A stretch of 64,000 bases of DNA, taken from assembly GCA_023380475.1 (NCBI GenBank), contig JAMCRD010000006.1, positions 2,546 through 66,545 of the forward strand, written 5' to 3'. Positions 6,734-29,331 of the stretch are shown piece by piece (position 1 is the first letter of the stretch; every line of letters begins with the position of its first letter). The translations under genes were made by a program, and so were the position numbers. The notes beneath the pieces were generated by a model. It made no database searches and was not told the origin of the DNA. It saw only the letters and a list, made by a program, of their open reading frames with translations. This DNA comes from Patescibacteria group bacterium. Its GTDB lineage: Bacteria; Patescibacteriota; Minisyncoccia; UBA6257; Colwellbacteraceae.

Positions 6734-6758
6734 AAATCCCGCCGAGCTGGCGGGATTT
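6734..6758. terminator. bidirectional hairpin between convergent genes
   Basis: AAATCCCGCC-gagct-GGCGGGATTT with A/T-rich flanks on both sides; lies between stop of 5839-6711 (+) and stop of hup (-). Confidence 0.4.
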
Positions 6759-6785
6759 AATATCGATTGAAAGTACTGTTCCAGA

Positions 6786-24975: not shown

Positions 24976-25954
24976 GCTAAGAATTATGGTTGGAGGTGGC
25001 GCTGGGTATATAGGAAGCATATTAGTCCCGGAGCTATTGAGGCTGGGTCACAAAGTGACAGTTGTGGATTTGCTATGGTTCGGCAACCACTTACCTTCCG
25101 ATACTAAGATCATACAAAAGGATCTGTTCCATCTAGAAAAATCAGATCTAACCAATATAGATATATTTATATTCTTAGCCGGCCTTTCTAACGATCCAAT
25201 GGCAGAATTCAGCCCAGCTAAGAATTTCATATACAATGCGGCGCTACCAGCTTACTTAGCTTTTATAGCCAAACAGGCGGGGGTTAAACGTTACATATAC
25301 GCTTCATCGTGCTCTGTTTATGGTTACACTGATAACAGTTTATATGACGAAACTGCGCCAACCATATCCAGTTATCCCTACGGCATATCGAAGCTGCAAG
25401 GAGAAAAGGGGGTGTTTCAACTACAAGACAAGGACTTTTCTGTAATAGCCCTCAGACAAGGAACTGTAGGTGGCTATAGCCCTAGGATGCGTTTTGATCT
25501 GATAGTTAACACAATGTTTAAGACTGCTATAAAAGACGGGAAGATAACGATAAACAATCCCGCGATATGGAGACCGCTCTGCGACGTAAGAGACACGGCC
25601 GCAGCTTACGTTAAGGCGATACAACTGGATAGCCAAACTTCAGATGTCTTCAATATAGCATTGAGTAACTTCACTGTCGGTGAGATAGGAGAGGCTATTA
25701 AGAAGAAAATTGAAGAACTAACAAAAAAAAGTGTATTGATCGATGTAAAAAATGTTCAAGATTACCGCAACTATAAAGTATCTACAGACAAAGCTGCAAC
25801 AAAACTCGGATTCAAGGCGTCATTCTCAATAGCTGACACTATAGAGGAATTGTTTAGGCACATTGATCAATACCAAGATTTCGAAAAAGACGAGTTTTAC
25901 AACATACGTACCTTTAAGAAGATAGAGGGCGGGGGAGAACGCCAATACATCTAA
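24965..25954 (+). CDS. NAD-dependent epimerase/dehydratase
   Basis: 329 aa; GGGAGYIGS Rossmann, YxxxK (YGISK) catalytic motif. Confidence 0.7.
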   Translation: MIDKLRIMVGGGAGYIGSILVPELLRLGHKVTVVDLLWFGNHLPSDTKIIQKDLFHLEKSDLTNIDIFIFLAGLSNDPMAEFSPAKNFIYNAALPAYLAFIAKQAGVKRYIYASSCSVYGYTDNSLYDETAPTISSYPYGISKLQGEKGVFQLQDKDFSVIALRQGTVGGYSPRMRFDLIVNTMFKTAIKDGKITINNPAIWRPLCDVRDTAAAYVKAIQLDSQTSDVFNIALSNFTVGEIGEAIKKKIEELTKKSVLIDVKNVQDYRNYKVSTDKAATKLGFKASFSIADTIEELFRHIDQYQDFEKDEFYNIRTFKKIEGGGERQYI

Positions 25955-25987
25955 ATAGGCACCATACTAATCTCTTGTATGGTGCCG

Positions 25988-26062
25988 CGGGAGGGAATCG
26001 GACCCCCGACGCCAGCCTCTTCAGGGCTGCGCTCTACCACTGAGCTACCGCGGCGATAACAA
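25988..26062 (-). tRNA. tRNA-Phe(GAA)
   Basis: Minus strand: acceptor GCCGCGG/CCGCGGC, D arm GCTCAGTGGTAGAGC, anticodon loop CTGAAGA, CCA encoded. Confidence 0.8.
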
Positions 26063-26130
26063 AGACATGCTACACAAGATCAATCCATTCTTCAATGAAG
26101 GAGAGCAGATTGCTACATAGACAATAACTA

Positions 26131-27687
26131 TTATAGACTTGTAAAGTTCAACGGACTGCCCCCGTAGTTCAATGGATAGAACAGATCCGTCCTAAGGATA
26201 AAATAGGAGTTCGATTCTCTTCGGGGGCACCAAGTGAGAAATTGCAAATCCCCAGAAGTCGCCGCAGACGGCTGGGCGGCCAGTTCGTATTGTAATTTCG
26301 GGGCAAACGAGAATTCGCGGTTTCGCAAAATATGGTTCGAGCCGATGTTTTTGAGAAATGTTGTCATTGCAATTCCGTTATTCTCTTGAAGCAGTTTTGA
26401 GGCCTGATTGAGTGATAGAACGAACTCTCTCGCTGGTTCGAGCCACGACAGCCCTTTGTCCGCGAAATCGGATATTTTCTCCTGCAATCCGATTTTCCGA
26501 GAAAGCAGCTGTTCCTTCTTCGCGGCGTATTCGGTCTGGAACAGGGCGTCGGCAAGATAGGCATCGAGGAGTTTGGACAGCTTCGCCTCCACGCGGGCAA
26601 CTTCGTTTTTCAGAGTATCAATCTGCGCTCGCGCCTCCTCCCTTGCCTTGTCCCGTTCCGCCTCTAAGAGAGCTAACGCTTTCTCGGTATCATCGTCCGA
26701 CAAAGAAATTTTTTGCAGGAACGATTGTATATGCTCCGTCACTATCTCCTCGCGGAGATAGTGCTTTTCTTGGCACACGCCGCCTTTCTTTGTGCAACGA
26801 TAATAAGCATGGCCTTTCTGCATTTCGGCGGTGATGGAGCTTCCGCACGAGGCGCATTTCATAAGGCCGAGAAAAGCGAAATCATGCCGCTTCGTCTCAA
26901 TCGTCTTGCCGCGCTTTGCGCGCACCTCTTGGCAGAGGTCAAAAAGTTTCTTCGGGACAAGAGGTTCGTGGCGTCCCTCGTACAGTTCTCCGCGATACCG
27001 CATAAGGCCGTAATAGAAGGGGTTGGTTAAAATCTTCTGGATATTGCTAAGCGCAATCTCCTTGCCGAGGTTGCCTTTCAATCCTTGCTCTCGGCACCAA
27101 TCTACGAGGTCATGGAGCGTATAGCTTCCTATGGCGTAAAGCGCGAACAGCTTGCGGACAAGCGGGGCTTTCACGGGGTCAACATCAATCCCTCGCGTCC
27201 TCGGGTTGTTCAAGTAGCCAATCGGTGCCCAGCTCGGCCATACGCCGTTCCGTATCTTCTGCCGCAAGCCACGCTTTACGTTCTCCCGCAGGTTGTCCAC
27301 GAAGTATTTTGACTGCCCGAAGGCAATGTTGAGCATAAAGAGGCCTTGTGGTGTCGGCTCAAACCAGAACGTAGGGAACTTGAGGGACTTAATCAGGCCT
27401 CGGTCAATCATGTGGATGACCCGCCCGCCGTCCACGGAATTGCGGGCGAGGCGATCTGGGTGCCACGAGAGGATGCCCTGTGCCTTGCCGCGTTCCACGA
27501 ATGACAACATTTCAGCGAACTTAATACGGCCGGGTTCTTTGGCGGTCTTTGCCTCCTCAAAGGAAGCGACAATTTCAAGTTTTTCTTTGGCGGCAAATTC
27601 CCGAAGCTCCACCAGTTGAGCTTCTATGGACAGCACCTGCCCGTCGTCTTCTTCCGTTGATTTGCGAGCGTAGATTATGTATTTCAT
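26131..27687 (-). CDS. large serine recombinase (resolvase catalytic domain, recombinase domain, zinc ribbon, coiled coil)
   Basis: N-terminal YARKST..Q catalytic serine motif and ILSWHPDRLARN; CASCGS...CTKKGGVC zinc ribbon; coiled-coil region; last 28 codons are antisense of tRNA-Arg, so true stop is likely upstream. Confidence 0.85.
   Translation of the reverse strand: MKYIIYARKSTEEDDGQVLSIEAQLVELREFAAKEKLEIVASFEEAKTAKEPGRIKFAEMLSFVERGKAQGILSWHPDRLARNSVDGGRVIHMIDRGLIKSLKFPTFWFEPTPQGLFMLNIAFGQSKYFVDNLRENVKRGLRQKIRNGVWPSWAPIGYLNNPRTRGIDVDPVKAPLVRKLFALYAIGSYTLHDLVDWCREQGLKGNLGKEIALSNIQKILTNPFYYGLMRYRGELYEGRHEPLVPKKLFDLCQEVRAKRGKTIETKRHDFAFLGLMKCASCGSSITAEMQKGHAYYRCTKKGGVCQEKHYLREEIVTEHIQSFLQKISLSDDDTEKALALLEAERDKAREEARAQIDTLKNEVARVEAKLSKLLDAYLADALFQTEYAAKKEQLLSRKIGLQEKISDFADKGLSWLEPAREFVLSLNQASKLLQENNGIAMTTFLKNIGSNHILRNREFSFAPKLQYELAAQPSAATSGDLQFLTWCPRRESNSYFILRTDLFYPLNYGGSPLNFTSL
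26148..26222 (+). tRNA. tRNA-Arg(CCT)
   Basis: Acceptor GCCCCCG/CGGGGGC, anticodon loop GTCCTAA (stem has one G-A mismatch), T loop AGTTCGATTCT, CCA encoded; its last 6 nt (GCACCA) begin repeat X. Confidence 0.65.
26217..26315. repeat. inverted repeat X (99 bp), left copy
   Basis: Exact reverse complement of 27714-27812; spans tRNA-Arg 3' end and encodes residues RNREF...LTWC of recombinase ORF. Confidence 0.9.
26316..26339. repeat. inverted repeat Y (24 bp), left copy
   Basis: Exact reverse complement of 27923-27946; contiguous with X on the left, but separated from X' by Z on the right. Confidence 0.8.
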
Positions 27688-27691
27688 CGTG

Positions 27692-27711
27692 TTAAAAATT
27701 TTCTTTTCCCA
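27692..27711. repeat. 20-bp inverted repeat, left copy (ttaaaaattttcttttccca)
   Basis: Exact reverse complement of 27947-27966; forms the leader 4 nt upstream of the recombinase start codon. Confidence 0.85.
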
Positions 27712-27713
27712 GT

Positions 27714-27812
27714 CGAAACCGCGAATTCTCGTTTGCCCCGAAATTACAATACGAACTGGCCGCCCAGCCGTCTGCGGCGACTTCTGGGGATTTGCAATTT
27801 CTCACTTGGTGC
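27714..27812. repeat. inverted repeat X' (99 bp), right copy
   Basis: Exact reverse complement of 26217-26315; in-frame on + strand it re-encodes the same 33-aa peptide. Confidence 0.9.
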
Positions 27813-27897
27813 AGGACAATTGAGATAGCTCGAACGGTTTTTGACACCCCCACCGAGGCTAAATCTGAAACGCCCGACGTGGCGGAGCCGCACCGAT
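27809..27897. repeat. inverted repeat Z (89 bp)
   Basis: Reverse complement of 28659-28747 with one mismatch; overlaps X' by 4 nt (GTGC). Confidence 0.85.
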
Positions 27898-27922
27898 AAA
27901 GACCGCCAAAGAACCCGTTCCT

Positions 27923-27946
27923 AACATCGGCTCGAACCATATTTTG
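27923..27946. repeat. inverted repeat Y' (24 bp)
   Basis: Exact reverse complement of 26316-26339. Confidence 0.8.
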
Positions 27947-27966
27947 TGGGAAAAGAAAATTTTTAA
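27947..27966. repeat. 20-bp inverted repeat, right copy (tgggaaaagaaaatttttaa)
   Basis: Forms the leader 4 nt upstream of ATG 27971 of the small AT-rich gene; identical to the recombinase leader. Confidence 0.85.
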
Positions 27967-27970
27967 TCAT

Positions 27971-28141
27971 ATGAAAAAAGCATTATTAATTATTTGTGAG
28001 TTTATAGCGACGGTAGTTATTTTCTTATTGATTTATAAATTTTTTAATTTATCAACAGCTTTACCAATATGGATTGTAATCGTCATCATTTTGATAAAAA
28101 CGACAATTAGCCACGACGGTAAAGACAAAGACGGGGCATAG
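27971..28141 (+). CDS. small two-TM membrane protein (56 aa)
   Basis: ATG at 27971 (track ORF begins at a TTG inside Y'); very AT-rich coding sequence unlike the surrounding genome. Confidence 0.4.
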   Translation: MKKALLIICEFIATVVIFLLIYKFFNLSTALPIWIVIVIILIKTTISHDGKDKDGA

Positions 28142-28203
28142 GATTTTGAATATTGGTCAATCTGTTCCGCACCAATAAAGACACAAAGAAATAATTTTTA
28201 ACC

Positions 28204-28626
28204 ATGAAAAGATTAAAAAGTTTACTAGTGGTTTGGCTAGAAATTTTGGTCGGCGGCCTGATTTTAATTTTTGTGCCAGACATCAGATGGTTTCTGTTTT
28301 ATCTTTTAGTGATTGTTCTTATGACTTCGGTTATGCGAGCGGATTATCTGCGAAAGGTCGTCAGGGTGTTCCAAGTGGAGAATGGGGTTAATCTCGCTAG
28401 CATAGCCAAGAAACTCAACATATCGGAAGCAGAGATTCAGAAGTCCAGAGATGACCTTAGCGACAGCTTGCTGGACGACCAAAGAAAATCTTTGCATAAG
28501 GATATGGAAGAGCTTGGAATTTCCAGCCCCGAACGCTTTTACAGAAATCCAGTGGACGGCCTATCAGATACCGAAAGGGGTAAGAAATTCATGGATAAAG
28601 TTTTTAAGGACTTCGGGGATAACTAA
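28204..28626 (+). CDS. membrane protein with HTH-like segment
   Basis: 140 aa; two N-terminal TM helices, then VNLASIAKKLNISEAEIQKS resembling a helix-turn-helix; AT-rich. Confidence 0.4.
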   Translation: MKRLKSLLVVWLEILVGGLILIFVPDIRWFLFYLLVIVLMTSVMRADYLRKVVRVFQVENGVNLASIAKKLNISEAEIQKSRDDLSDSLLDDQRKSLHKDMEELGISSPERFYRNPVDGLSDTERGKKFMDKVFKDFGDN

Positions 28627-28658
28627 AATTTGCCGCCAAAGAAAAACTTGAAATTGTC

Positions 28659-28747
28659 ATCGGTGCGGCTCCGCCGCGTCGGGCGTTTCAGATTTAGCCT
28701 CGGTGGGGGTGTCAAAAACCGTTCGAGCTATCTCAATTGTCCTGCAC
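28659..28747. repeat. inverted repeat Z' (89 bp)
   Basis: Reverse complement of 27809-27897 with one mismatch; begins 33 nt after stop of 28204-28626. Confidence 0.85.
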
Positions 28748-28782
28748 TACTAATAATCTGCTAATTGAGCATATTATTAGTA
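28748..28782. repeat. 10-bp perfect palindrome TACTAATAAT/ATTATTAGTA with 15-nt spacer
   Basis: Seen directly; sits between Z' and tRNA-Arg(TCT). Confidence 0.6.
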
Positions 28783-28786
28783 GACC

Positions 28787-28858
28787 GTCCCCATAGTTCA
28801 ACGGATAGAACATCTCCCTTCTAAGGAGATGATTGAGGTTCGATTCCTCATGGGGACA
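28787..28858 (+). tRNA. tRNA-Arg(TCT)
   Basis: Acceptor GTCCCCA/TGGGGAC, anticodon stem TCTCC/GGAGA with loop CTTCTAA, T loop GGTTCGATTCC. Confidence 0.8.
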
Positions 28859-28859
28859 C

Positions 28860-28930
28860 CGGGCTGTAGTGTAATGGTAGCACGAGTCTTTTGGGAAGAT
28901 TTAGTCCGAGTTCGAATCTCGGCAGCCCGA
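28860..28930 (+). tRNA. tRNA-Pro(TGG)
   Basis: Acceptor CGGGCTG/CAGCCCG, anticodon loop TTTGGGA with G37, T loop AGTTCGAATCT; starts 2 nt after tRNA-Arg. Confidence 0.75.
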
Positions 28931-28954
28931 CAAAATAAAGTAGACCCATCTAGG

Positions 28955-28990
28955 TTAATAAAAGCCCACCTTTATCTATTTGGTGGGCTT
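28955..28990 (-). terminator. rho-independent terminator of the Cys-rich protein gene
   Basis: Minus-strand hairpin AAGCCCACC-loop-GGTGGGCTT followed by UUUUAUUAA. Confidence 0.5.
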
Positions 28991-28995
28991 ACTGC

Positions 28996-29331
28996 CTATG
29001 CTTCTTGAACGCCGTGAATGTCGGCTGACCTTTCGAGTATAACCCCAGGCAATTTCTTTGAGGTAATTACAGTCTTGGTCTGACCTTCACTAGACGTTAA
29101 CACTTCGCCTTTTAGCCCCAGATATATACCTTCTGCACAGCCCCAGCAAAACAGATCGCCGCAATCATAACCCTGAGCACCCCTATGTTGAGTGTGGTAG
29201 CTAAAACGGTTCCCTGACCTGCTGGTGTGGTAGCTGCACATGTTGATACCACAACCGCTGCACCTATCGAGGGCCCTATTATCACAACCCTTAACCTGGC
29301 ATTTGCCGTCTCTTGGCTCTGGAAGTGACAT
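28996..29331 (-). CDS. cysteine-rich small protein (zinc-ribbon-like)
   Basis: 111 aa with 12 Cys in CxxC-rich clusters (CQVKGC, CSGCGINMC, CGDLFCWGC). Confidence 0.4.
   Translation of the reverse strand: MSLPEPRDGKCQVKGCDNRALDRCSGCGINMCSYHTSRSGNRFSYHTQHRGAQGYDCGDLFCWGCAEGIYLGLKGEVLTSSEGQTKTVITSKKLPGVILERSADIHGVQEA

Follow-up and report, generated by a model that had tools for sequence, protein, structure and literature searches.

Nucleotides 26227-28747 of the window (the whole stretch of Patescibacteria DNA that was analysed, 64,000 nt) are well supported as an integrative element of ~2.5 kb that is driven by a large serine recombinase (LSR) and is inserted at the 3' end of tRNA-Arg(CCT). 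Its attachment site, attP, is placed by the sequence evidence, also with good support, inside the 3' end of the recombinase gene itself, with X as the P arm, GTGC as the core and Y as the P' arm. Integration at the tRNA 3' end thereby cuts the recombinase gene at the core, leaving residues 1-487 followed by a junk tail from the antisense tRNA, and displaces the last 28 codons (Y') to the opposite end of the element. One reversed duplicate of the last 61 codons (X' plus Y) lies a short way upstream of the recombinase gene. The split original and the reversed duplicate together account for two abutting pairs of inverted repeats, X/X' and Y/Y', so that the 99-bp repeat X/X' represents one half of the duplicated gene end. 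Inversion between X and X' would flip the 1.39-kb body of the recombinase gene and toggle the element between two states, O and O'. Taken as a whole, this latch explanation (a self-clipping LSR element with inversion onto a spare gene end) is the one we favour, as somewhat more likely than not. The features of the region are as follows.

26158-26232, plus strand: tRNA-Arg(CCT), the integration target (attB side; ARAGORN; Rfam tRNA, 59 bits); its last 6 nt, GCACCA (ARAGORN), lie inside arm X
26131-27687, minus strand: ORF of the large serine recombinase, 518 aa (Pfam Resolvase, Recombinase and Zn_ribbon_recom)
26227-26325, minus strand: arm X, recombinase codons 455-487; putative P arm, joined to the tRNA at an attR-like junction
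26326-26349, minus strand: segment b, codons 447-454 (NIGSNHIL), native partner of the patch at 27923-27946
27531-27550, minus strand: segment c, codons ~46-52, native partner of the patch at 27898-27917
27568-27599, minus strand: segment d, codons ~30-40, native partner of the patch at 28627-28658
27692-27711, minus strand: segment f, recombinase 5' leader just before the ATG, native partner of the patch at 27947-27966
27714-27812, plus strand (sense): arm X', reversed spare of codons 455-487
27809-27812, no strand: core overlap GTGC, common to X' and Y; presumed crossover region
27809-27899, plus strand: arm Y and stop codon, spare of the native last 28 codons (RTIEIARTVFDTPTEAKSETPDVAEPHR, then stop), in frame with X'
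27898-27966, plus strand: patch block, comprising the c copy (27898-27917), 5 nt, the b copy (27923-27946) and the f copy (27947-27966)
27971-28626, plus strand: cargo slot with two small ORFs (ORF calls)
27971-28141, plus strand: cargo ORF 1, a 56-aa membrane-like protein
28204-28626, plus strand: cargo ORF 2, 140 aa
28627-28658, plus strand: d copy patch, its first base directly after the cargo stop codon
28659-28747, minus strand: arm Y', the original last 28 codons of the recombinase gene, at an attL-like junction with the host flank
28747-28860, plus strand: host flank, a hairpin (28747-28783) and then tRNA-Arg(TCT) (28787-28860)

The core recurs as GCAC both where the tRNA ends (26227-30) and at the far terminus of the element (28744-47), and the host flank is the sequence originally downstream of tRNA-Arg(CCT). 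An Rfam scan of nt 25800-29100 detected four tRNAs and no other match. A scan for promoters and terminators gave counts no higher than in shuffled controls, and none inside the element. The element is situated within a tRNA cluster, and a promoter-like site is present upstream of tRNA-Arg(CCT).

The initial annotation had described a perfect 99-bp inverted repeat with arms at 26217-26315 and 27714-27812. A repeat search and blastn confirmed the repeat (99 nt, 100% complementary, 1388 nt between the arms) and its right arm, but the left arm was misplaced by 10 nt and is correctly 26227-26325. On the minus strand, X encodes recombinase residues 455-487 (RNREF...LTWC), and the claim that these 33 residues are encoded a second time by X', in plus-strand sense, also held. 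X' begins 26 nt upstream of the recombinase ATG (27687), a distance previously given as 27 bp. Three features had been missed: the overlap of X with the last 6 nt of tRNA-Arg(CCT) (26158-26232); a second inverted repeat (27809-27897/28659-28747, 89 nt, 99%), of which the Y arm abuts X' with a 4-nt overlap, GTGC; and four additional exact reverse-complement patches of 20-32 nt. The annotation had also proposed that its reading would fail if X lay beyond the natural C-terminus and was merely a generic repeat, and this was checked and is not the case. X falls within conserved homology (N456, R457, F461, P463, K464, Y467, A471 and L481 are invariant in the homologue alignment), no further copies of X were found in the 64-kb window by blastn, and X is not a dispersed repeat. 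A chance origin of a perfect inverted repeat of 99 nt can be all but discounted. An assembly artefact is unlikely, because a comparable repeat (99-102 nt, spaced ~1390-1430 nt) recurs in independent assemblies produced by different assemblers and because a second public record of the source genome is 100% identical across 15 kb.

The recombinase fulfils the catalytic and the Recombinase plus zinc-ribbon (with inserted coiled coil) criteria of an LSR. It has a Resolvase domain (PF00239, E = 5e-21, residues 4-150) with the catalytic motif YARKST, which 26/26 aligned homologues share with S10 invariant, as well as PF07508 (Recombinase, residues 171-259) and PF13408 (zinc ribbon, residues 272-320); long helices are predicted for residues 331-447 by a structure model of low overall confidence. 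Distant matches to PDB sequences were to the C-terminal domain of A118 integrase and to SPbeta SprA. Matches to the curated NCBIfam equivalog models of the XisF and CcrA/B/C subfamilies were likewise distant and fell far short of the cut-offs (XisF, 75 bits versus 375; CcrB, 70 bits versus 900). An exact look-up of the 518-aa product returned no record, and the gene table for GCA_023476555.1 lacks a recombinase gene at this position. Gene callers miss the recombinase gene or misplace its end.

Alignment with relatives revealed that homology runs through X and stops at W486-C487, the WC being the reverse complement of the GCACCA end of the tRNA. Past this point the homologues have unrelated tails (ESNL/DSNP) specified by antisense tRNA, which were found in 110 of the 120 closest homologues. 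Residues 1-487 are genuine, and residues 488-518 are, in the present state, antisense tRNA read-through. Across the virtual junction X-core-Y the frame stays open and leads into a tail that is conserved (...WC SILELVRTHF..AAEPHR, then stop), and the stop codon lies 0-4 nt from the end of the Y repeat, a stop at the repeat end being seen in ~27 loci. Y (27813-27899, 28 codons plus stop) shows homology at the protein level across the family, which makes it the native C-terminus. The possibility that Y is a tRNA fragment was rejected, as it matches no tRNA model (Rfam). An AlphaFold2 model of a full-length relative, P0035, has a mean pLDDT of 58.8 (<50 in the tail), a quality that supports neither fold searches nor any verdict on what the tail does.

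Within Y, a TCGAAC-like motif (YCGRAC) is found at +18 from the core in 25/38 loci, and a TCGAA motif is found at +13 in the tRNA flank, also in 25/38 loci. The motif recognised by the zinc-ribbon domain of LSRs sits 5 bp nearer the centre in attB than in attP (PMC3783163), and the +18/+13 offset fits this shift, an inference again from sequence alone, without binding data. In LSRs the crossover takes place at a central dinucleotide, and excision by attL x attR needs a directionality factor; the crossover region could be narrowed only to the 4-8-nt overlap. At other loci the core overlap is 4-8 nt and covaries with the end of the flanking tRNA (GTCC, GCTC, GTGG, GGTAC). The predicted empty site would read tRNA-Arg(CCT)...GGGGGCAC joined to TACTAATAATCTGC; a search for it, and for same-site polymorphism, by way of the two host proteins that flank the element retrieved nothing but copies that were 100% identical and in an unchanged state. 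No candidate directionality factor is evident in the element, since the cargo differs in nearly every locus.

The same architecture is present at 38 distinct loci in independent Patescibacteria genomes, with recombinases that are 62-91% identical to that of the window, and more than 7,500 homologues (E < 1e-10) are spread across many Patescibacteria lineages. No prior description of the family was found in the searched literature. It is a very large and apparently undescribed family of small mobile elements (2.3-3.5 kb) of Patescibacteria (CPR bacteria). An antisense tRNA adjoins the same arm in 30/38 loci, and 17 tRNA species are represented. Recombinases at least 90% identical to each other occupy different tRNAs, which argues that the element has moved recently. 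The arms are 99-100% identical within a locus (median 99%) compared to 64-68% between loci (median 68%), a pattern of concerted evolution, and their near-perfect identity suggests that they often undergo homologous exchange or gene conversion. In about 30/38 loci the repeat has its inner boundary at 99-102 nt. In L096 the boundary creeps inward and the 5' end of the recombinase gene is lost, and L042 displays illegitimate joins at a GC-rich hairpin. The spare copy, X' plus Y, has been called as a small ORF ('hypothetical proteins') 526 times. An ATG is formed at the spare-copy junction in the main subfamily, while the window, L002, L006, L008 and others are without any start codon; a separate small gene is thus not universal, and this interpretation of the spare copy was rejected.

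The patches of the c-b-f block have the same order and positions in relatives, and the patches co-vary with their native partners, the segment b pair being present in 32/38 loci. In the patch block of the window (27898-27966), all copies are in plus-strand sense and directly 5' of the cargo. When elements are compared with one another, their homology ends precisely at the f and d patches. The cargo has very diverse functions across the family, and the cargo ORFs of the window gave no family match. One cassette per element is usual, and two are rare (L042). Three interpretations of the patches were rejected. As coding sequence fused to the cargo, the c-b-f patches are in frame in the window, but L005 has an in-frame stop. 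A single nested RNA fold is contradicted by pairings that cross one another, and conservative site-specific recombination by the duplication of sequence and by the absence, at the junctions, of the 17 nt between d and c.

In state O, the state of the window and of most loci, the recombinase would be truncated, with its transcription running towards the tRNA gene from the opposite direction. In state O', the body would be joined to X' plus Y and specify a full-length protein of 515 aa, and the gene would lie downstream of the tRNA promoter and co-oriented with it, followed by the cargo on the same strand. State O may be a locked, low-activity state made by the self-clipping insertion, with the spare copy offering a route back to a complete recombinase. 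The agent of inversion could be the recombinase itself or host homologous recombination, and neither is assigned.

The predicted inverted state was found in four loci (L083, L092, L095 and L097). These are one X/X' inversion apart from state O and carry a full-length gene co-oriented with the tRNA and cargo; in L095, a sense-oriented tRNA-like 3' end adjoins the X' equivalent. Only O and O' were seen, both states with a flipped cargo unit being absent (0/~43). O' is rare, accounting for about 1/7 of one 90% cluster and for less overall. No O/O' polymorphism was found at the same site or within a population, and both public copies of the source genome are in state O. The inversion put forward in the initial annotation was largely right. 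Its claim that the recombinase ORF would be regenerated on the opposite strand is supported, in that the sequence permits it. Its claim of a changed 3' continuation is likewise supported, and the new continuation is not arbitrary but is Y (27813-27899). The upstream context would also change as claimed, from convergent with the tRNA to downstream of the tRNA and co-oriented. The 'recent or ongoing exchange' between the arms is inferred only from their concerted evolution, and switching in the source organism or within one population has not been shown.

Several points weigh against the latch. It is possible that O' stems from a different integration route and not from inversion in place. Host-driven inversion should also flip the equally long and perfect Y/Y', and the absence of cargo-flipped states means that selection or a specific mechanism is needed. 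Recombination of attP with attR or attL is not carried out by canonical LSRs, no directionality factor is in evidence, and nothing indicates that activity depends on the 28-residue tail. With no promoter above chance detected inside the element, the expression logic is purely inferred, and the model leaves the four short patches unexplained.

The rival that survives best, although unlikely, is that X' plus Y is a second functional attP in the circular form, and that O and O' arise when different isomers of the circle integrate, with no switch in place. The repeat would then exist for the isomerisation of the circle or as a redundant site, and would have no part in reactivating an integrated copy. 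Over ~190 bp, X' plus Y does match the reconstructed attP exactly in inverted orientation. The L097 contig (2702 nt) runs exactly from core to core, as would be the case for a circle or for an element in several contexts, and the structures of O and O' equal those expected from integration of two isomers. Against this, free isomerisation between two equivalent sites predicts four arrangements and only two are observed (38+, 4, 0, 0), none of the contigs was found to be circular with overlapping ends, and LSRs do not normally recombine attP with attP (PMC3783163). State O also dominates even in recently moved copies, which argues that one site is preferentially used.

Insulation at the RNA level is very unlikely. 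According to this rival, the repeats and patches work in transcripts and not in DNA, and the recombinase is silenced: read-through from the tRNA promoter carries both partners, a 20-bp F/rcF stem sequesters the leaders of recombinase and cargo, and X/X' forms a 99-bp duplex, such that the recombinase is silent unless transcription starts in the central block. In its favour, each of the two leaders, that of the recombinase and that of the cargo, has its exact reverse complement in the sequence upstream of the other (27692-27711/27947-27966), the patches co-vary with their partners, and the tRNA cluster with its promoter-like site provides a suitable setting. However, the pairings cross one another and allow no nested fold, and the perfect identity at synonymous sites, without G-U or compensatory changes, points to copying and not to selection for pairing. 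The patches also become direct repeats in O' and are then unable to pair, and the idea rests on no transcript data.

There is similarly little to recommend a functionless relic, in which an ancestral complex duplication (e.g., by serial template switching) has hitch-hiked with an active element while gene conversion homogenised it. The mosaic of reverse-complement patches, 20-30 nt each, does resemble the products of template switching, and the boundary creep in L096 and the illegitimate joins in L042 are compatible with it. The inner boundary is nevertheless constant (99-102 nt in about 30/38 loci), the architecture is kept across recombinases that are only 62% identical, with the spare frame open and its stop at the repeat end, and neutral relics of such size should often vanish from small elements. 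An artefact or chance (a misassembled palindrome, a chimera of whole-genome amplification or a generic dispersed repeat) is practically ruled out, for although many related contigs terminate at the repeats, different studies and assemblers yielded the same architecture at 38 distinct loci, X is conserved coding sequence with no other copy in the window, and graph mis-joins are unlikely because the patch junctions are closer together than the 141-nt words of the assembler to which many of the contig names point (k141_...).

A bolder reading of the latch can be framed, which is less likely than not. It holds that the element is a self-contained two-state latch, in which a clipping insertion is followed by a spare-copy inversion that rebuilds the enzyme and places both it and a one-gene cargo slot under the tRNA promoter. 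DNA topology, in place of a separate directionality factor, would then specify both directionality and reactivation, and the co-varying 20-30-nt patches would mark a new means of building or exchanging cargo cassettes in reduced CPR genomes.

For bacteria whose genomes are very small, the family may constitute a major route of gene flow. It provides a bacterial, serine-recombinase counterpart to the placement of attP in the integrase's own gene, an arrangement described as confined to the tyrosine integrases of archaea (PMC8371274), and the counterpart has a built-in remedy in the form of a spare gene end. If the two states differ in activity, the element would exemplify LSR control without a directionality factor, an open topic, and would be a natural analogue of engineered recombinase latches. 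The recombinases are also candidate tools for genome engineering, as they are compact, target generic tRNA 3' ends and have attP/attB sites deducible from hundreds of loci.

Among known systems, SSV-type ('suicidal') integrases of archaeal viruses and plasmids (SSV1, pTN3, pT26-2) likewise carry attP in their own gene and target tRNAs, and integration fragments the gene (PMC8371274). They are tyrosine recombinases and exclusively archaeal (PMC8371274), and their genes are cut into two large parts, whereas the bacterial LSR of the window loses only its last 28 codons and its element carries a reversed spare gene end; no such spare copy is mentioned in the bearing passages of PMC8371274. The criterion of attP within the gene is met by the window element and that of a tyrosine fold is not, as only serine recombinase domains were found, and the resemblance is therefore one of function and not of membership. 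Mycobacteriophages BPs and Brujita, with their integration-dependent immunity, also have attP inside a gene, and integration alters the C-terminus of the product and hence its activity. The gene clipped in these phages is that of the repressor, the integrase is a tyrosine recombinase, and no inverted spare copy is known.

The phage LSRs (A118/LI, phiC31, Bxb1, SPbeta SprA) share with the window's recombinase the domain architecture, the 5-bp motif offset and a short core without long direct repeats at the element ends. In contrast to these systems, the window element is tiny, non-phage and without an evident directionality factor, its attP lies in a gene and has a reversed duplicate, and its target is the generic 3' end of many tRNAs instead of a single site. 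The Hin/Gin/Cin/Pin systems also combine a serine recombinase gene with a segment bounded by inverted repeats, the flipping of which changes the joined coding end or promoter. Hin/Gin-type enzymes are small invertases (~190 aa) that end in a C-terminal helix-turn-helix, act at 26-bp sites with the help of a Fis-dependent enhancer and switch genes other than their own, whereas the window LSR (487 aa, repeat arms 99 and 89 nt long) would invert the body of its own gene and so change its own C-terminus, although flipping has not been demonstrated. The inferred circle, with two unique segments between site-carrying inverted repeats, is reminiscent of the yeast 2-micron plasmid (FLP/FRT), and the slot for one variable gene of diverse function is reminiscent of integrons. 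Both of these use tyrosine recombinases and the window element a serine recombinase; unlike integrons, it has no tyrosine recombinase and no attC-like folded sites were identified, the cargo being bounded instead by the f and d copies. An interpretation of X/X' as the terminal inverted repeats of a minimal insertion sequence was rejected, as it is contradicted by Y/Y', by the continuity of the ORF and by the host junctions. In contrast to insertion sequences, the two ends of the element, X and Y', are unrelated to each other, and their inverted partners, X' and Y, are internal.

The ORF overlapping the repeat is a bona fide large serine recombinase (LSR) that lies outside every curated subfamily. 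A domain search returned Resolvase, Recombinase and Zn_ribbon_recom domains, and there are further matches to the A118 and SPbeta integrases, whose structures are solved. Its relation to XisF and Ccr is distant, with scores far under those family cut-offs. At E < 1e-10 it has more than 7,500 protein matches in the database, and the best 120 homologues (69–91% identical) have source names that are all Patescibacteria lineages. The exact 518-aa product is absent from a collection of 15 billion proteins. Members of the family are likely to be under-annotated; in the identical record GCA_023476555.1 (L099:8167–9723, equivalent to 26131–27687 of the window) the gene table lacks the recombinase and lists a 73-aa antisense ORF instead. 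The features of the locus are as follows.

26131–27687, minus strand: recombinase ORF, 518 aa
26158–26232, plus strand: tRNA-Arg(CCT), its final 6 nt (GCACCA) inside X
26227–26325, minus strand: arm X, coding for recombinase residues 455–487 (RNREF...LTWC)
27714–27812, plus strand: arm X', encoding residues 455–487 again
27809–27897 and 28659–28747: Y and Y', an inverted repeat of 89 nt with one mismatch
26326–26349 and 27923–27946: patch b, exact reverse complements
27531–27550 and 27898–27917: patch c, exact reverse complements
27568–27599 and 28627–28658: patch d, exact reverse complements
27692–27711 and 27947–27966: patch f, exact reverse complements

The X/X' repeat (repeat search and blastn of the window) is perfect over 99 nt with 1388 nt between its arms, and Y adjoins X' with a 4-nt overlap, GTGC, referred to here as the core. 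The patches, of 20–32 nt, tie the recombinase gene to the surroundings of two small plus-strand ORFs. No further copies of X, Y or the four patches occur in the 64-kb window. The initial annotation had placed the left arm at 26217–26315, which is 10 nt too low, but the rest of its description held. In a 26-member alignment the X-encoded stretch is homologous throughout (N456, R457, F461, P463, K464, Y467, A471 and L481 are invariant) and homology ends exactly at W486-C487, the TGG TGC codons of which are the reverse complement of the tRNA GCACCA end. Past WC, 110 of the 120 homologues carry unrelated tails (ESNL/DSNP type) such as a translated antisense tRNA typically gives. It follows that X is real, conserved protein-coding sequence and that its outer end is where it meets a tRNA gene. 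The possibility that X lies past the natural C-terminus as a generic repeat, which would have refuted the initial reading, is not borne out: X lies within the conserved homology, and there is a single X/X' pair in the window. The element sits in a tRNA cluster comprising tRNA-Phe (25980–26054, minus strand), tRNA-Arg(CCT) (26158–26232), tRNA-Arg(TCT) (28787–28860) and tRNA-Pro (28860–28931), the last two sharing one boundary base; the two tRNA-Arg genes are 74% identical. It is possible that transcription of the downstream tRNAs has to pass through the element.

When X is joined to Y' over the core, the reading frame remains open in the window and in about 27 of the 33 loci where this frame could be set. 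Past the core it encodes a conserved tail, (S/R)IL(E/K)(L/I)VRT.F...AAEPHR, with a stop codon 0–4 nt from the end of the Y repeat. Thus, Y is the true end of the recombinase gene and the crossover core lies inside the gene (attP-in-gene). Integration carries the 28 terminal codons off to the opposite end of the element (Y'). The X'+Y unit, which in the window translates to RNREF...LTWC RTIEIARTVFDTPTEAKSETPDVAEPHR followed by a stop, duplicates the final 61 codons in reverse and equals the reconstructed attP in reversed orientation. Gene callers annotate this spare copy as hypothetical proteins of 60–114 aa (P0121–P0240; 526 proteins; e.g., L005:4866–4970), and in the main subfamily an ATG arises exactly at the junction between CCCCAAAA and TGCGAAAT, a start that is missing from the window and several other loci. 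In 25 of 38 loci the Y arm carries a TCGAAC-like motif at +18 from the core, and in 25 of 38 the tRNA flank has one at +13, where it corresponds to the T-loop. In the A118-family integrase, the zinc-ribbon-domain motif is 5 bp further inward in attB than in attP (PMC3783163), and by analogy the offset seen here agrees with this LSR site rule, an inference from sequence alone without binding data. Recombinases at least 90% identical to one another were found at different tRNAs, so the element has been recently mobile.

The arrangement is widely conserved. Two relatives, L001 (91% identity) and L002 (82%), have a perfect 99-nt repeat, exactly 1388 nt between the arms and the same patches. A one-genome-per-species scan gave 80 loci, of which 37 distinct ones were fetched with enough flank and, with the window, make up a set of 38 (L002 and L003 count as one site). 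By self-comparison, all 38 share one layout and relative orientation. In the recombinase sense this reads host flank, Y' arm, d patch, cargo (antisense), f, b and c patches and Y arm, followed by X' arm, leader f, and recombinase (with d, c, b and the X arm in that order) against the antisense tRNA. In about 30 of the 38 the X repeat reaches 99–102 nt inward from the core, an antisense tRNA (17 species in all) adjoins the X arm in 30, and the Y/X' overlap of 4–8 nt varies in step with the flanking tRNA end and with the opening bases of Y'. Median arm identity is 99% (X) and 100% (Y) within loci and 68% and 64% between them. The patches, found in 24–32 of the 38 loci at the same positions, are about 99–100% identical to their own partner (the self-comparison detects only near-exact copies) and only 65–85% identical between loci. 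Because the layout recurs in 38 loci, with arms and patches far more alike within than between them, chance, artefact and a generic repeat are excluded as the source of the inverted repeat, and arms and patches evolve in concert.

Several irregular loci were also seen. At L016 (5706 onward) and L084–L091 (e.g., L084:4835–4900), the X arm is joined to diverged Y-like sequence without a tRNA, giving tails such as WCIYCTKLEP... and WCPLFENARTFFERN; this suggests that insertion took place beside an earlier element or that an attP-like pseudo-site was used. L006 has an extra 46-nt inverted repeat (98%; 1803–1848 and 6738–6783) around the whole element and its flanks, a single case.

Between elements that are 86–89% identical, the d and f patches mark exactly where homology breaks off, and they enclose unrelated DNA. 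This cargo is usually one ORF, of very diverse function across elements (SAM-dependent methyltransferases, HD-domain protein, NAD(P)HX dehydratase, short-chain dehydrogenase, DUF218, SRPBCC, HNH, metallophosphatase and secreted proteins). The patch order is a circular permutation of the gene order (f, d, c, b becoming c, b, f, cargo, d), and the cargo stands exactly where the recombinase has codons 1–29. An imperfect palindrome of 17 nt (27551–27567; in gene sense, GCTTCCTTTGAGGAGGC) separates d from c, and it is precisely this part that is absent where the patches meet Y and Y'; segments d and c have an 11-nt direct repeat, CCGCCAAAGAA, in common. Patches c, b and f of the window share a single reading frame with its first cargo ORF (27944–28141; the listed 65-aa ORF begins at a TTG within patch b), probably by coincidence, as the frame is not conserved and L005 has an in-frame stop. 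In L042:199–2502 the c-b-f-ORF-d cargo unit occurs twice in tandem, and a hybrid of distal Y-arm halves joins the two at a GC-rich hairpin, CGCCGCC-TGY-GGCGGCG, inside Y; the first cassette has its own promoter-like TTGACA-17-TATCTT and a terminator-like hairpin.

Two states of the element exist in nature. A 64-residue tail profile matched mostly small ORFs called on the spare copy; full-length recombinase genes are therefore rare. One, P0035, lies on contig L083, in the order leader, recombinase, X, core, Y, c, b, f, cargo (same strand), d and reversed Y. An AlphaFold2 model of P0035 was of too low confidence (mean pLDDT 58.8) to be informative. A metagenome scan found b-X-core-Y contiguity in seven loci. 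L092, L095 and L097 are arranged like L083, with the patches as direct repeats, and in L095 a sense-oriented tRNA-like 3' end directly adjoins the X' equivalent; L096 and L093 are degenerate derivatives, and L094 and L098 are short contigs of unresolved arrangement. In L096 (4364–5930, reverse-complement orientation) the X repeat has grown inward to 113 nt and now covers b plus a further 13 codons, the recombinase has lost about 210 nt from its 5' end, and the outer ~25 nt of the arms are unlike (TTGCAAG versus GTCAAAG type). L093:2290–2700 is a recombinase-less remnant (b-X-core-Y-c-b-f-cargo) preceded by unrelated sequence in a 71-nt inverted repeat with L093:887–957. The common state (O) and the alternative (O') differ by one inversion of the recombinase body over X/X': the recombinase is truncated and antisense to the tRNA in O, and full-length and sense in O', while in both the cargo points the same way as the target tRNA. 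Neither of the two possible arrangements with a flipped cargo unit was seen in ~43 loci. The initial suggestion that X/X' inversion places the recombinase on the other strand is thus matched by an existing arrangement at L083, L092, L095 and L097, but not in this genome, both available copies of which are identical and in state O (assemblies only, without read-level data).

On balance we lean, with no great confidence, towards a model in which the recombinase is toggled by an inversion for which X/X' serves as substrate; this is inferred, without read-level data. In state O the recombinase would be clipped, transcribed against the tRNA and, as we propose, locked; in O' it would be complete and downstream of the tRNA promoter, and the spare copy would make a self-clipping insertion reversible. 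A promoter scan could assign no promoters in the element. The near-perfect identity of the arms speaks for homologous exchange or gene conversion as the inversion agent, which has not been identified, and the missing Y/Y' flips speak for specificity or selection. Among the rivals, X'+Y, as a copy of the attP, could be a second attP offering alternative integration routes, but this appears unlikely. A functionless relic, its copies merely kept homogenised, and a role in insulation at the RNA level are both very improbable. An artefact is all but ruled out by the recurrence of the layout.

No prior description of this recombinase or element family was found in the literature searched. A Hin/Gin-type invertase was considered and rejected for the recombinase, as were an insertion sequence with terminal inverted repeats and an integron for the element. 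Self-disrupting recombinases are confined to archaea according to a 2021 review (PMC8371274). Functionally, the nearest known case is that of the SSV-type 'suicidal' integrases, which likewise have attP in their own gene and target tRNA genes; these, however, are tyrosine recombinases, whereas the enzyme described here is an LSR.
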